From the NCBI GenBank assembly GCA_964016885.1, contig OZ024745.1:37758001-37822000 (forward strand): 64,000 nt of DNA, in the 5' to 3' direction. Made by a program: the position numbers and the translations under genes. Below, in pieces: positions 16,740-61,270 of this stretch (positions within the stretch are counted from its first letter, which is position 1; each line of letters opens with the position of its first letter). The notes beneath the pieces were generated by a model that was not told the DNA's origin, did no database searches, and worked only from the letters and a program-made list of their open reading frames with translations. The stretch comes from Eledone cirrhosa. Lineage: Eukaryota.

Positions 16740-16849
16740 AAGTAAGTCCTTCATCAGTGACCCTCCAACCGTCCCAGGCATTTCATCGCTTTTTAAAGCG
16801 ATGAAATGCCTGGGACGGTTGGAGGGTCACTGATGAAGGACTTACTTTT
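16738..16849. repeat. Perfect palindrome, 55-bp arms with a 2-nt spacer, containing GAAA...CTGATGA
   Basis: aaaagtaagtccttcatcag...cgcttt TT aaagcg...ctgatgaaggacttactttt. Confidence 0.95.
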
Positions 16850-16885
16850 ACATATGCACCCCATTTGCAACGCGCAGCTCATCAT

Positions 16886-48535: not shown

Positions 48536-48980
48536 ATAATAAAATTGAAGACTAAAATCCAAAGAGGGCTCGATAAGGATAAATATATATCAAATATATA
48601 AGAACCGTAGAGCAAATATTTATTAAAATAACAGATTAAAGTTTAAGCAAAGAATCGATGCTTTCACCCTTTCAGAAGATCCCGTTAAGGGTGTAAGCAG
48701 CGATTTTTTGCTCAAAGTTTAATGTGTTATTTTAATAAATATTTGCTCTACGGTTCTTATATATTTGATATATATTTATCCTTATCGAGCCCTCTTTGAA
48801 TTTTAGTCTTCAATTTTATTATTACTATATATATATATATATATATATATAGTAATAATTATAAATTTGAAGACTAAAATCCAAAGAGGGCTCGATTGAT
48901 TTTTTTAGTTTTAGAAGATCCCGTTAAGGGTGAAAGCACCAATTTTTGCTTAAACTTTAATCTGTTATTTTAATAAATAA
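48529..48980. repeat. ~140-bp-arm foldback plus rearranged copies of an HHR-like element (also at 17394-17462 and 41630-41752)
   Basis: 48529-48669 is the reverse complement of ~48689-48829; the centre reads cagaagatcccgttaagggtg(a/t)aagc. Confidence 0.88.
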
Positions 48981-49316: not shown

Positions 49317-49700
49317 CATAGGCTAATAAAAAATCCTTCGATCATGAATGACCATGTGATTTGTACCTAGAATGTTTCCCTCCCAGTCACAAGACCGGGC
49401 AAGGTTGTTTGCAGAATACCACCAGTCGCCCTTGCATACCAGTCTCCCCTCTCCACACCACCGATGTTGTCCAAGAGAAAGACAAAAGCCAATACAACAT
49501 GGCACCAGTGACGTCAGTAAATTATAACTTATACTATTTTCTCCTTGGTTACTCACTTGCATGTGCCATTGTTCCGAGGTCCCCCTTCTATTCGGTATGT
49601 TTACTTCGTTTTTTCCTTTTCCCTTTTTTTCTTTCTTCCTCTCTCTTCACTATAGTTTCTTTCCCTCATGGCCTTTTGATGGATAAAAGGCCTCGGGCGC

Positions 49701-49770
49701 GCTGCGGATCGATGTCCTGTTTTAAGTGCCGAAATATCTATGATCCGCAGTAAACAGCTGAGGAAGGGCA
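49701..49770 (+). ncRNA. Candidate hammerhead ribozyme with non-canonical strand order
   Basis: gatGTC|ctgttt..tgccGAAAtatc..aaacagCTGAGGAagggca; stems I, II and III can each be paired. Confidence 0.55.
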
Positions 49771-51074
49771 ACTTTTCTTCTGTTGTTTACCTCTCCATTA
49801 CTATCACACACTTACAGTAACCACACATCCTGCCTCTCTTTTTACCTGTATTTATATATATATATACACACACACATTTATTTATATATATATATATACA
49901 CATATGTATGTGTATATATATATATATATATATATCTATATATCTATATATATATATATATACATATATATACAGAGAGAGAGAGAGAGAGAAAGAGAAA
50001 GAGAGAGAGAATAACTATGACGCTATAATTGAGCAAAAGAAAGTTTCTCATTCGCTACACCTGTCTGAATAGGTGCATTGATTTGTTTGTTTTTCAAAAT
50101 TTTTCTTTGTTATTGTTGTTTTGTAATTATTACTGTTTTTTTCTTTCTTGCTGTCATTCTTGTTGGTGTTGTTGTTGCTCCTGTATTTGTTGTTTTTGTT
50201 CTTTTTATTTTCGAGTAATTCCATCCATGTCATGTGTGATCCACCATACCTATGATCTATATGTATTAACCCAAGGACAGCGTTACTATTAAGCTCAACT
50301 AAGCAGCCGTCAGTGGCACAAACATTGGAGCGGCACATTACTGAACATTAAAGGGTCACAGTTTTCTACATATTTACATAATTAATTAAAATATATAATC
50401 ATTTCCTTCGATCAATAAAAAAAAAAATCACTAAACATCTGTGCCGTAAAGCAGGGCTGTAAAAATGTTGAAAGCGGTGGAATGTGTCGTATGGTGTTAT
50501 ATCCGGTCATATGGTATGGCATGGGTGAACTGAAACATTCACATCGTCGTAAGTGTCCGAGATCCCACACATAACACTATTAATTTAAAATGCGGTGGAT
50601 TGACAGAATAGTTAGCGTCGGACAAAATGGTTTGCAGTGTTTATTTCGAGTCTTCTCTCTTCAAATCCGCCCCTTACTTATATCAAGTATCGATAAAATA
50701 AAGTACCAGTCAAGCATTAGGGCTGTTGAAATAAACTACCAATCATGTACTTGGGTCAATTTAATCTATTAACCCAAATTGTACCTATAATACAAATAGC
50801 TATTTTAAGATATACGACCACCCCTCACATAATGATTTCATTTAACACACAATTACGACCATAAATTTCTTTTTCGGTAATTTTTCCATGGTACATATTT
50901 TTGTATTCATGGAGAAGCAAATAATTTACCTTGTAGTGTGAAAGGCACTTGCCATTTTTGTTAGAGCTTATCACTACGCCTCTCCATTAGTATTTAAGTC
51001 TGGATCGCTTTTCCTTTGAATCACTCATTTCCATATTAGGTGGTCAGTGCCAATATGTGTATCGAAGTCGCTGA

Positions 51075-56989: not shown

Positions 56990-59900
56990 TTCTATTTATT
57001 TGCCACCAGAGCATCAAAGATTGGGACAAATACAAAGGGGGGAGTTTACATACATTTAAAAAGACGTGTAAAAAACATATAACAAATTAAATTTAACAAT
57101 CGATGTCCTCAATAGAGAGGGGCGTTGACATGGGTCGCACACACCCCGAAAAAATGTGCAACCCTCCTCTTCAGGAGCACAAAGAGCGGGTGCTTCCTTC
57201 CTCTTCTCATTCTTCTCCTCTCTCACCTACAGGCTGATATAGAGAGAAAGCCATTCTCGCTACTTTCACCCACCTTTCATAAAACTTGCTGGGGTAGAGC
57301 ATCTCTCTCTCCATTCTGATCCTTCTTCTAAAGTGGTACTTGAAAAAAAAGACCAGTTGTTGGCCGGAGAGAAAGGTGTCTGACCTCAGCCCTTTCAACC
57401 TTGTCCACCATACAACTTCTTTCGCCATGGCTATCACACAGAGGAAAACCGCCTCTCCTTCGTTTTTGAAAGGGGGAGGCGGTTTGATCGTGACAATGTT
57501 CTCGGTGGTCAACCGGATTGGTCCCACCCGCGACAGTAGTCGTTCCACATATCCCCACAGGTCAGCAACGCCCGGGTAGTGTACGAATGCGTGTGCGACG
57601 GTTTCCTCGTCACGCACGCATCTCGGACAGATCTTCTTCGAGGGGTCCCTACCCGGGCGCCGGTGTCTGTAGAGCTTGTCCCGAACGGGTAGAGCTCCTC
57701 GGTAACATTGCCAAGCCAGGGACTTTTGGAAGTTGTCAATCGGTCCCGGGCCAAACCTCCTACCGAACAGACTGGCCAGCTCGTCTTCCTCCATGCCCAG
57801 AGCCTGTCCGAGTGCGTCGTCGCACTTACTGCGCACCAACCCTCTATAGAATGTTGAGGTTGAGTCTCCACTGATTGCCGGATCCGCTTGCCAGAGGGCC
57901 GTGAGCGACTGCGCACATTCAATGTGCCAGTCGCCCACTTTTCTCGGTCTTTGCTTGACCCAGGATTGCAGCTCGGTGAGTGAGACGAGTCTCGGAAAGG
58001 CTCGCCTCACAAACAGGGCCCACACCGGCTGACCGGTGAGGAATATCTGGAGGTGCCGTAGCCTTAATGCGTGTCTACCCATCGTCAGCCACGGCATCCT
58101 GAGCCCTCCGTTCGAAGGGTGTTGACAGCAGATGGATCTTCTCACCAAAGGAGCCCGCTTCTTCCAAAGAAATCGGAAGAGCGCGCGCTCCAATTTTGGC
58201 GAGTGTTTTCTCTGGGCAAGGCACGACGGTCAAGCGGTAGTAGATGATGGACGCTATATAAGCGTTCGCCACCTCCGCTCGACCTTTCAGGGATAGTTTG
58301 CTCTCGGCCCACTTCTGGGCGAGTGCAAACACCTTGCCCGTTACCTCGTCCCAGCTTTTCTCCACCTGGAGGTCAGGTCCGAACCAGATCCCGAGCAGCT
58401 TCACCGGTCCCTCCGTCCAGCGTCCGACGATGCCGTCGGAGGGCATCGTTTTGCCCCTCCACGTCCCGAGTTGCAAACCGACGGACTTGTCCCGGTTCAG
58501 CTTGGCTCCTGTGAACCTTTCATATTCCTCCAGTAAGGTGCCGATCTGCCCGTTTTCCGATGCGCACGACACCATTACTGTCACGTCATCGGCGTAAGCC
58601 GACACCGCTTTCCGCAATCCCGGTTCCAAGGGGATGCCCTGCAACATCTCCAGCTTCCGCAGTAGTGGCTCGAGAGCCTGCACATATAGGAGGGAGGAGA
58701 GAGAGCATCCCTGTCGGATGGATCGCGTGATTTGGAACGGCTCCGAGAGGTAGCCGTTCACCTTGACCCTCGAGCAGGTGTTGCTGCTGTGCATTGCAGC
58801 AATCCAGCCCCTGAAAACGGGTCCGAAGCCTGCCGCCGCGAGCACCGCTTCCAGGTACCGATGGTCAACCCTATCGAACGCCTTAGATTGATCCAAGTTG
58901 ATCAGGGCCCCACCAAAGCCGGGTTCGTTCCCTACCCTCTCTACGATGTATCGCATGAGGTGGAAGTTGTCGTGTATGGACCTGGACGGGATTGGGCATG
59001 TCTGCGCTTCTCCCACCAGGTTCCCGACGACAAGCGCCAACCTCTTCGCTAACACCTTGGCCAAAATCTTTAACTGTGTTTAGCAGAGTTATGGGCCTGA
59101 AGTTATCTATATCATCCACCTTGTTCTCGTTCTTTCCTCACCAGCGTGAATACGCCCTTGGTCACAGAACTGGGAATTCTCCCGTTCTGTTGCCAGTTGC
59201 AGTAGACCGCCTCGAGGAGACCGGAGAACAAGCCCGGCATCGCTACATAAAGTTCGTATGGTAGACCATCGAGACCCGGAAATTTGCGTTTGCCGCATTA
59301 GCTCAGCGCTTCCCCTATTTCAGCGGCTGAAATCGGCCTCTCGCAGGACTTCGCCTCCCCGCCCGAGAGCTGCGCCAAACCGTCGAGGTATGGACCGAAA
59401 TCCATGGCCCCACCCGGCCCGGCGCCCCTCCCGAACAGTCGTGAAAAGCGCCGTTGAAAGGCCGCGCTCATCCGCTCAGGTTCAATGATCACGCGTGCAT
59501 TCTGGTCCTTCAAAGACCGAATCGTGGACTTGTTTCCACTTTTTGCCTCTGTCACTCGGGGCCAGCTAACAGCTTTGGCTCCCTCGTTACCCAGAGCACG
59601 TATTTTACTCCTGACAACGCAGCCCTCGTGCTTCGCATCAAAGAACTGGTCTAGGGCAGTTCTTGACGCCAGCACGCCGGCCACGTTGCCACTCTTAATC
59701 GCCTCTTCTACTCTATTTGTTAATTACCTTTCAGTTCTATTCCTATCTGATGCTAATTCCCGACTAAAACCTATCGATTCTATTCTAATTTCTCTCTTGT
59801 GAGAGACCCACCACCTGCTGTTGACAATTGCCCCCGTCAAACGCTGCTTAACTAGTGTGGTAATCCGCTTACTGTAAGCTTTGTTTGTCGGTAAAGACAA

Positions 59901-61270
59901 GTTTAGCTTCCAGTAACCGGGTCCCTGTCTATAACTTCTATCAAGGTTGACCACTCCGGTCAACAACTTGTGATCCGAATAGTCAACCATGAACATTCGT
60001 GGACAGCTTAATATGTCCCTATCCTTATTTCTAACTAGGAACCTATCTAGGTACGACCTAGATGTTCCGCTGCGATTAGTCTACGCCCACAGTGGCACAA
60101 TCGGAAAATCTAGTCGATATCTATCGGCCAGATCAAATCGGCCGATTAATCGTTTGAGGCTGTTACACCCCCTCTATCGGGACATTCCCCTACATAGTCC
60201 CAACGTGCATCCAGGATACCATTCCAGTCCCACACTAAAAGCAAGGAGCGAGACGTTCCCAGGAAATTCTCCAGGCGTCGGAAGAAGTCCGGTCGCGGTG
60301 TCCCAGATGGGGCATACGCTGCCACCAGCCTGAAAGCTCCACCTTCACCACCGCCGACGTCTAAAACCACCAGTCGACCCTCCGGGTCCAGGTGTACCTT
60401 CTGTGTGGCAAGACCCAGGTATTTTTGAAGCAGAACGACAACCCCACCCCCACCCCTCGGCTGACAGAGAGATGCGTAGATCTGAAAGTCGTCGAAGATG
60501 GGGGCCAGTTGGCGCTCGCTGCTGATCCTGGACTCGCAAATAACCATTACATACACTCTGTGCGACCTGAGGTCATTTAAGAGTTTGTCCTGTTTCAAGG
60601 ACATCCCCAGGCCGCGTGCATTCACACATCCAACTCGTATATTGGCCATGTTGGTGCTGAAGAGTTAAAAAGGAAGAGGAAAGGAAATTACTTACATCTT
60701 CGTCTCCTGGGGACCAGGCTGCACAATTTCCATGGGGGTGTTGGAAGGGTTGTTTGGTGGGGTAAGGACATCAGTATGTGGTGTGATTAGGGTATTTGAT
60801 GGGGTGTGGATGTCTGGTGTGGGGGTGGGGAAACATCTCAATAGGACGTGGTTAAGTGGTTTGGTGCAGATGGTCCCCACATCCATTGGATGGTTCTTTT
60901 TCAAAGTTATATAGGTTTCCGTTGGGACCCTAATCATCATTAGGTGCGGTTTGTTCGCTGCGTAGGTGAAAGTGATCCCTTCGGTTTCCACCGAAGGGTT
61001 ATTTTCTACTGTTTTCATCAACGTTTTATTGTTCTTGTTAATGTATGTATAGAGTTTTTGTTGTGTTGTGTTTGTTTTTGTTTGTTATTCTTGTGCGTGT
61101 TTGCGTTTTGTAGTATGTGTTATGTTTTGGGGAGGGGTGGGTTTTTTTATTTGTGATGTTTGTTCTGTTTGTGCTGGTGGTTGTGTGTTTGTGGCATTTT
61201 TGTTAATGTGGTGCGTTTTTTTTCCTTTTCACCTGTTAAAAGGGTTCTCCCTCGTCGTCACTGGGTGACG
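56990..61270 (-). mobile_element. Tx1-clade (L1 group) LINE, probably near full length
   Basis: complete EN-RT-Zn ORF2 with a 3' UTR; 5' boundary uncertain. Confidence 0.85.
57207..60649 (-). pseudogene. Tx1 ORF2 (APE endonuclease + RT + zf-RVT), broken by several frameshifts and stops
   Basis: GCVNARGL, AYAP, DWN, YSDHK, GPGYWKLN, NFRPITLLN, LDQSKAFDRVDH, RQGCSLS, AYADD, CPRC..ETVAHAF. Confidence 0.93.

Follow-up and report, generated by a model that had tools for sequence, protein, structure and literature searches.

The window, a 64,000-nt stretch of the Eledone cirrhosa genome, carries at positions 49701..49770 of the plus strand all three conserved segments of a hammerhead ribozyme together with complementary arms, arranged in the strand order A-C-B. 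This raises the question of how such a chain could build a hammerhead core, and of what it would do in the repeat that carries it. A reading made from the letters of the DNA (the sequence-only reading) had placed this order outside the circular types I, II and III. This placement holds, and yet the order is not new, since Eckert et al. (2023, PMC10085705), who divided the hammerhead into the blocks S, G and C, named it type SGC. We consider it likely that the locus encodes a self-cleaving hammerhead of a non-autonomous Penelope-like repeat, with a predicted cut after C49716 and a chain that opens in the core just after A9. The observations behind this reading are the sequence parts, four complementary helices, covariation across families, constant spacing and the insertion pattern.

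Parts of the motif and covariation of its helices

Block S (49711..49722, plus strand, GAUGUC|CUGUUU) holds the 5′ strand of stem III, the GUC triplet and the 5′ strand of stem I. Block G (49726..49738, plus strand) holds the 3′ strand of stem II, GAAA at 49731-34 and the 3′ strand of stem III, and its letters at 49727-38 read UGCC-GAAA-UAUC in the window copy. Further downstream, 49752..49766 (plus strand) comprises the 3′ strand of stem I (AAACAG), the core CUGAGGA (49758-64) and the dinucleotide AG. This AG is kept directly 3′ of the core both in the repeat family of the window copy (family 1) and in a second family (family 2), and its G is able to pair with position 11.1. Stem I (cuguuu/aaacag) forms six Watson–Crick pairs and stem III (gaugu/auauc) five pairs, one of them G.U, as the sequence-only reading had drawn them; we likewise agree with its short linker connecting the distal ends of stems I and II and with its predicted cut site at 49716/17, a position assigned by analogy with hammerheads. 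The extension of stem III that it had noticed consists of nine Watson–Crick pairs (49702-10/49742-50, here P4). The 5′ strand of P4 (49702..49710, plus strand) shows pair probabilities of 0.67-1.0 and covariation, and its 3′ strand is preceded by a 3-nt bulge (UAU), the two spanning 49739..49750 on the plus strand. The 5′ strand of stem II, GGCGC, lies upstream of the whole motif (49696..49700, plus strand), with all five positions pairing with 49726-30. The window copy thereby retains all four helices and the core, and CUGANGA, GAAA and UH with A15.1-U16.1 are all present in the sequence.

Just 5′ of the motif, fold and alignment indicate an 8-bp hairpin (49670..49692, plus strand) that is kept in family 1. 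On the other side, a pyrimidine-rich tail (49774..49791, plus strand) is predicted to trap the 3′ strand of stem I and the core in a competing hairpin. For the window copy this hairpin was calculated at -19.3 kcal/mol, the strongest of 54 family-1 instances (median -10.0), and the folding model suggests that in its native context the window copy is probably held off by it. A three-block descriptor matched the 64-kb window once, at the motif itself. With a four-helix descriptor we obtained 90 matches (39 distinct) in the window and the fetched family loci and 2 matches in 7.68 Mb of block-shuffled window sequence. A search of the whole window with Rfam returned no match at gathering score, and among 40 weak, microsatellite-driven matches at 47-52 kb there was no hammerhead.

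For the analysis of covariation we used an alignment (A2) of 27 hand-picked copies from family 2 and from older families, set gapless at fixed offsets from the core. The 27 rows were taken from 31, which came from 26 chosen loci, after leaving out two truncated and two near-duplicate rows; family 1 is not represented because its linker is shorter, and a MAFFT alignment of family 1 with family 2 was mis-registered and therefore left out. We observed that the four-helix structure pairs 87.7% of the cells, with 166 double changes and a covariation of 0.659. None of 500 shuffles reached these three values, while 21 of 500 did so for the pair count and 101 of 500 for the pair types; as the rows are kin by descent and represent about three independent families, kinship inflates these shuffle results. 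Slid-register controls gave 27-47% paired cells. Stems I and III were paired in 87.0% and 91.9% of the cells, respectively, with double changes in five of six and four of five pairs, and GAAA was invariant, the rows having been chosen on the core. The sequence-only reading had let strand B enter as a pseudoknot if the extension melts, or in trans from a second copy. The extension is no passing helix that has to melt; it behaves as a conserved fourth helix: in the 31 of 91 old copies that have an intact site block, 142 of 186 P4 positions are paired, which was reached in 0 of 5000 shuffles.

Stem II requires a separate look, as the sequence-only reading had paired UGCC with a GGCA downstream of the core. 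These four pairs can be drawn in the window copy, yet they are neither conserved nor covarying: on A2 the downstream strand is paired in 48.1% of the cells, its covariation was matched by 337 of 500 shuffles, and no slid register exceeded 45%. The upstream strand, by comparison, is paired in 81.5% with 21 double changes, and its covariation was reached in 0 of 500 shuffles. In families 1 and 2 together the upstream strand pairs in 95-97% at positions 11.2-11.5; this value comes from 84 of 121 core-spaced instances, 37 having been dropped for failing a family anchor that partly overlaps the upstream stem II strand. Between the two families G-C is exchanged for U-A. The downstream strand fails in these families at offsets 0, 1 and 2 except at position 11.1, which pairs with the G two bases 3′ of the core in 97-98% of the 84 parsed copies; the base that faces 11.1 on the upstream strand is mismatched in family 2, and the source of position 10.1 (upstream strand or G after the core) differs by family. 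In the old copies with an intact site block the upstream stem II lies weakly above the shuffled level (64 of 124 paired; 198 of 5000 shuffles), and in 27 unfiltered old rows it does not rise above it (438 of 2000). A helix II closing the core next to G12 is thus provided by the upstream strand and is weak in old single copies. Taken together, covariation favours pairing of the strand before GAAA with the upstream strand (49696-700) and not with the strand after CUGANGA.

Strand topology and possible closure of the fold

P4 starts 1 nt 3′ of the 5′ strand of stem II and stops 1 nt 5′ of the 3′ strand of stem I. The chain runs through the 5′ strands of stem II and P4, blocks S and G, the 3′ strand of P4, and finally the 3′ strand of stem I with CUGANGA. 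Of the six helix pairs, five cross and just one, P4 with stem III, is nested, so that the motif is neither a circular permutation nor the nested three-way junction of types I, II and III. Since the partner of stem II lies upstream, the chain likely opens just after A9, inside the catalytic core. Closing it between A9 and position 10 gives the cycle of types SGC and CSG, from which we infer that the motif is this cycle opened in the core. The first step would be a hairpin of P4 and stem III, with the 5′ strand of stem I, the 3′ strand of stem II and GAA in its loop. The arms at the open end of P4 would then base-pair into this loop, forming stems II and I as two pseudoknots and completing a normal core, with P4 taking the place of the helix that makes the contact between stems I and II in SGC and CSG ribozymes.

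Whether a single copy could close in this way may depend on the joint between stem III and P4. In a standard kink-turn (Huang and Lilley 2016, PMC5061560), a bulge of 3 nt precedes a GA that faces another GA. We found this sequence between the two helices in family 2, in older families (15 of the 31 old copies) and in the octopus Naiad ends described below. Family 1, in contrast, including the window copy, has a plain 3-nt bulge or, alternatively, a 6-nt insert or larger loop, and the UC of its non-bulged strand pairs normally, which does not correspond to a standard kink-turn. A two-rod geometry estimate gave a gap of 28 A at a 50-degree bend and of 44-54 A at 90-120 degrees; in this model, self-closure looks easy with a kink-turn and strained without one. 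With the kink-turn, P4 would fold back against stem III in most families, so that one copy could close on itself, whereas family 1 may need fraying, a protein or a second tandem copy.

The last of these options leads to a different reading of the same strands, in which the active site would form only between two copies: the loop of a P4-stem III rod would be completed by the arms of its tandem neighbor, and only tandem transcripts would be cut. Copies are indeed often tandem, minimal Penelope-like hammerheads have been reported to cleave as dimers (PMC4209133), family 1 and the coral Naiad ends are without the kink-turn and have their long helices joined by 0-3 nt, and the rough geometry disfavors self-closure. 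The kink-turn sequence and the identical 23-nt and 15-nt spacings of family 2, the older families and two octopus Naiad ends, however, fit a compact single-copy fold, and single SGC and CSG constructs were cleaved during transcription (PMC10085705). We therefore regard assembly from two copies as a serious possibility, if not the one we would choose. The distance from GAAA to CUGA is 23 nt in all families parsed, which is partly so by construction.

Repeat families, Naiad elements and the predicted cleavage site

The motif lies near the 3′ end of its repeat. The window copy of family 1 is a 5′-truncated, non-coding Penelope-like repeat at 49514..49850 of the plus strand (homology starts at about 49514), adjoined by (TA)n at 49849-49972. 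Its full unit measures about 700-760 nt and is pyrimidine-rich; we saw no ORF and no coding remnant in it. In this 3.0-Gb, microsatellite-rich genome a first look gave 910 candidates of the family, of which 40, besides the window copy itself, were scored at 89-93% identity, and an 18-nt core anchor has 54 exact matches. Partial tandems and inverted copies were seen in five fetched loci (L003, L005, L008, L018 and L020). Partial tandems, inverted 5′-truncated copies and microsatellite ((TA)n) targets are the pattern described for Penelope-like elements (PMC8557442), and family 1 displays all three. In four loci (L114, L137, L138 and L194) family-1 copies carry internal deletions that end, on their downstream side, at or right next to the predicted cleavage site, a pattern expected from template jumps. 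A short inverted repeat around a (TA)n center at 48784-48897 of the window has kin beside (TA)n in several fetched loci.

The sequence-only reading had suspected a family from a similar layout at 16.8 kb. The motif does belong to a family, and its layout recurs in several repeat families of the genome. The 16.8-kb site itself shares the GAAA-to-CUGANGA spacing and represents family 2, although strand A is missing there, because the site (16737..16850) is a fold-back pair of family-2 copies, each of which begins some 7 nt 3′ of the predicted cut. The full four-helix motif is present in intact family-2 copies at other sites. Family 2 is younger than family 1 (666 exact matches of a 25-nt anchor in the genome) and has almost no sequence in common with it outside the core. 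A pattern of spacings only, built so that it passes over the main forms of families 1 and 2, matched 217 times and its control 4 times. The older families are 13-28% diverged and their majorities do pair at the upstream stem II; the cluster majorities of two such families form this helix with 5 bp, in one of them with the register displaced by 1 nt, as judged by eye.

The element that mobilizes these repeats was sought among the Naiads, which Craig et al. (2021, PMC8557442) describe as having no canonical hammerheads, several being flagged ‘HHR_half_core’. We parsed by eye the last 330-600 nt of 53 of the 54 consensus sequences in the supplement of that paper and found the layout of the motif in 9 of the 53 ends: one from a ctenophore, five from cnidarians and three from cephalopods (Bfor, Chem-3, Amil, Aacu, Anas, Movir-2, Obim, Ovul and Esco). 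By eye, the helix sequences differ among these ends, three coral ends and two octopus ends each being near-identical; in the cephalopod Esco four of five stem II positions pair, and in the ctenophore Bfor only two positions of stem I do. Eight nematode ends appear as clean type CSG with a long P4. In the remaining 36 of 53 neither layout was seen in the stretch shown, which holds other motifs or none. The Naiads of oyster, ark-shell, pearl-oyster and acorn-worm in that supplement carry a different GC-rich conserved motif right after the ORF, which is not hammerhead-like.

Our repeats resemble Naiads in their (TA)n targets, partial tandems and inverted 5′ copies (PMC8557442), and by eye the two octopus ends appear to match families of the E. 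cirrhosa genome in spacing and helices. They differ in that the family 1 unit lacks the Naiad ORF, in which an N-terminal GIY-YIG is combined with a C-terminal reverse transcriptase; nor did we find in the genome a sequence link to such an ORF. We found none among the 150 GIY-YIG candidates scored out of 10,597: the 30 top loci and 19 of 20 long-frame regions are of types with a C-terminal endonuclease, one region being left unassigned. The 3′ regions of these elements, as far as read, hold canonical or degenerate type-I motifs or none. Family-2 copies near these GIY-YIG ORFs are separate (TA)n insertions. Two exact motif patterns from the octopus Naiad ends had 0 matches in the genome, and a related Naiad-like 14-nt stretch had 3, with no ORF upstream in any of the three loci (including L371). 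As no Naiad ORF was found in the genome, the mobilizing partner is put forward here by inference. The motif would likely serve to divide tandem transcripts into the units that a Penelope-like reverse transcriptase, most likely of the Naiad type, works on. Among the long GIY-YIG elements, several loci between L171 and L190 hold C-terminal GIY-YIG Penelope-like ORFs with open frames of 844-1096 codons; two families of these end in a degenerate type-I-like core lacking CUGANGA, and another in an intact minimal one.

The idea that 5′ ends of the copies mark the cut found no support in the anchor-based samples, which show no one-sided edge. Family 1 (54 anchors) has 12 junctions at +1..+13 and 10 at -10..-2, so that they flank the site on either side; some of them are accounted for by TA microhomology and by a palindrome at -9..-4. 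In family 2 most of the 89 anchors read through the site, and 3 of about 37 true junctions fall at +1..+12, where about 1.6 are expected. A subset of family 2 flanked by TA had seemed to speak for the idea, with starts at +1..+12 in 24 of its 33 distinct loci, but this is a hand count over the first 100 of 157 rows that TA microhomology confounds. The proposal that site-spanning copies derive from templates with a broken stem II was rejected (p = 0.26 and 0.48).

Such junctions would also suit a fold that mainly serves the reverse transcriptase as a protein-binding signal at the element end, with cleavage slow, protein-dependent or vestigial: most family-2 copies read through the site, family-1 junctions gather 5′ and 3′ of it in the manner expected of a template-switch hotspot, and many Naiads (36 of 53 ends) end in other motifs or none. 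In an active Poseidon element the hammerhead is protein-assisted and dispensable for insertion in vitro, mutants being without effect on insertion (PMC11167929). We nevertheless judge this reading unlikely, since UH, GAAA, CUGANGA and A15.1-U16.1 are kept while the helices turn over across phyla, and a purely structural signal needs none of them.

Relation to published hammerheads

Among known hammerheads, the self-cleaving fold proposed here stands closest to type SGC (HRIMA-1 and variants), of which Eckert et al. predicted 583 examples from metatranscriptomes and found none in genomes of known organisms (PMC10085705). SGC and CSG RNAs cleave in vitro, with rates of 0.007-0.19 per min for SGC. 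Like type SGC, the motif has the S-G-C order, a short linker between stems I and II, a conserved core and a fourth helix beside the distal ends of stems I and II, formed by bases before the 3′ strand of stem I with bases after the 5′ strand of stem II. The two differ in block C. The published scheme treats CUGANGA as inseparable from its stem II strand, and its descriptor requires stem II right after CUGAUGA, with the chain opening between the fourth helix and stem III. In the motif, however, the chain opens in the core, the 5′ strand of stem II being upstream and P4 joined to stem III by two closed links; moreover, SGC examples are metatranscriptome RNAs, while the motif belongs to an animal retroelement. 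Type CSG, known from two metagenomic sequences, has the same cyclic strand order, but its block C is intact whereas ours is split.

A second group of relatives comprises the minimal type-I hammerheads of Penelope-like elements and animal non-LTR retrozymes (PMC4209133; bioRxiv 10.64898/2026.07.22.740005). Their core, too, sits in a terminal repeat of tandem units that are short and non-autonomous, and an extra nucleotide between A9 and 10.1 is known from them (PMC4209133). Unlike the motif, with its units of about 650-760 nt and its stable stem III, they are circular permutations that lack P4 and whose palindromic stem III is short. In the mostly open literature that we searched on SGC, non-circular permutation, Naiads and kink-turns with hammerheads, no retroelement was described with this layout, and we likewise met neither the in-core break nor the closed arm of P4 and stem III with its kink-turn nor the animal retroelement setting.

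On another reading, the motif would be an ordinary SGC ribozyme whose stem II is built from nucleotides after CUGANGA, the upstream match being an alternative fold. The window copy can form the four UGCC/GGCA pairs mentioned above; the G two bases 3′ of the core is the partner of position 11.1 in 97% of 84 copies, and in family 2 the upstream strand offers a mismatch at 11.1. Beyond 11.1, however, no pairing with the downstream strand holds at offset 0, 1 or 2; with 48.1% paired, that strand shows no covariation and no slid register above 45%; in addition, by eye, the Naiad ends of four cnidarian and ctenophore genera lack that G and have a full upstream partner. This makes an ordinary SGC ribozyme quite improbable. 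A chance arrangement of short motifs in a decayed repeat is scarcely credible, for although the spacing pattern alone also matches an unrelated canonical type-I hammerhead array in the window (5 of 8 matches), the descriptor null (2 in 7.68 Mb), the covariation in four helices and the 217 versus 4 control matches speak against it.

We lean, on balance, towards regarding the split-core hammerhead as a seventh natural topology outside the six of Eckert et al., with a chain open between A9 and position 10 that is caged by a fourth helix and often by a kink-turn. Together with type CSG it would be the missing ribozyme of many Naiads (ctenophores, cnidarians, nematodes and cephalopods), spread in the present genome by several non-coding passenger families. 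If it cleaves, the motif breaks the explicit classification assumption that block C is uninterruptible, brings non-circular permutations out of anonymous environmental RNA and into animal genomes, where their copy number is high, and accounts for the verdict of descriptor searches that Naiads are free of hammerheads. One strand cycle opened at three points (SGC, CSG and in-core) within one retroelement clade would offer a testable route for the evolution of permutations.

Several other elements share the window. The type-I array occupies 8965-12011 of the minus strand inside (TA)n and consists of 6.5 tandem copies of a 467-bp unit at 98% identity, every unit carrying a minimal type-I hammerhead of canonical form, in which stem I has 7 bp, stem II has 4 bp and stem III is palindromic; it is an ordinary young non-LTR retrozyme. 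A Penelope-like ORF fragment at 313-1326 (minus strand) comprises a reverse-transcriptase end together with a C-terminal GIY-YIG, just under the Pfam cut-offs. Finally, a frameshifted LINE-type element at 57207-60664 (minus strand) shows endonuclease/phosphatase, RVT_1 and zf-RVT matches in three frames.
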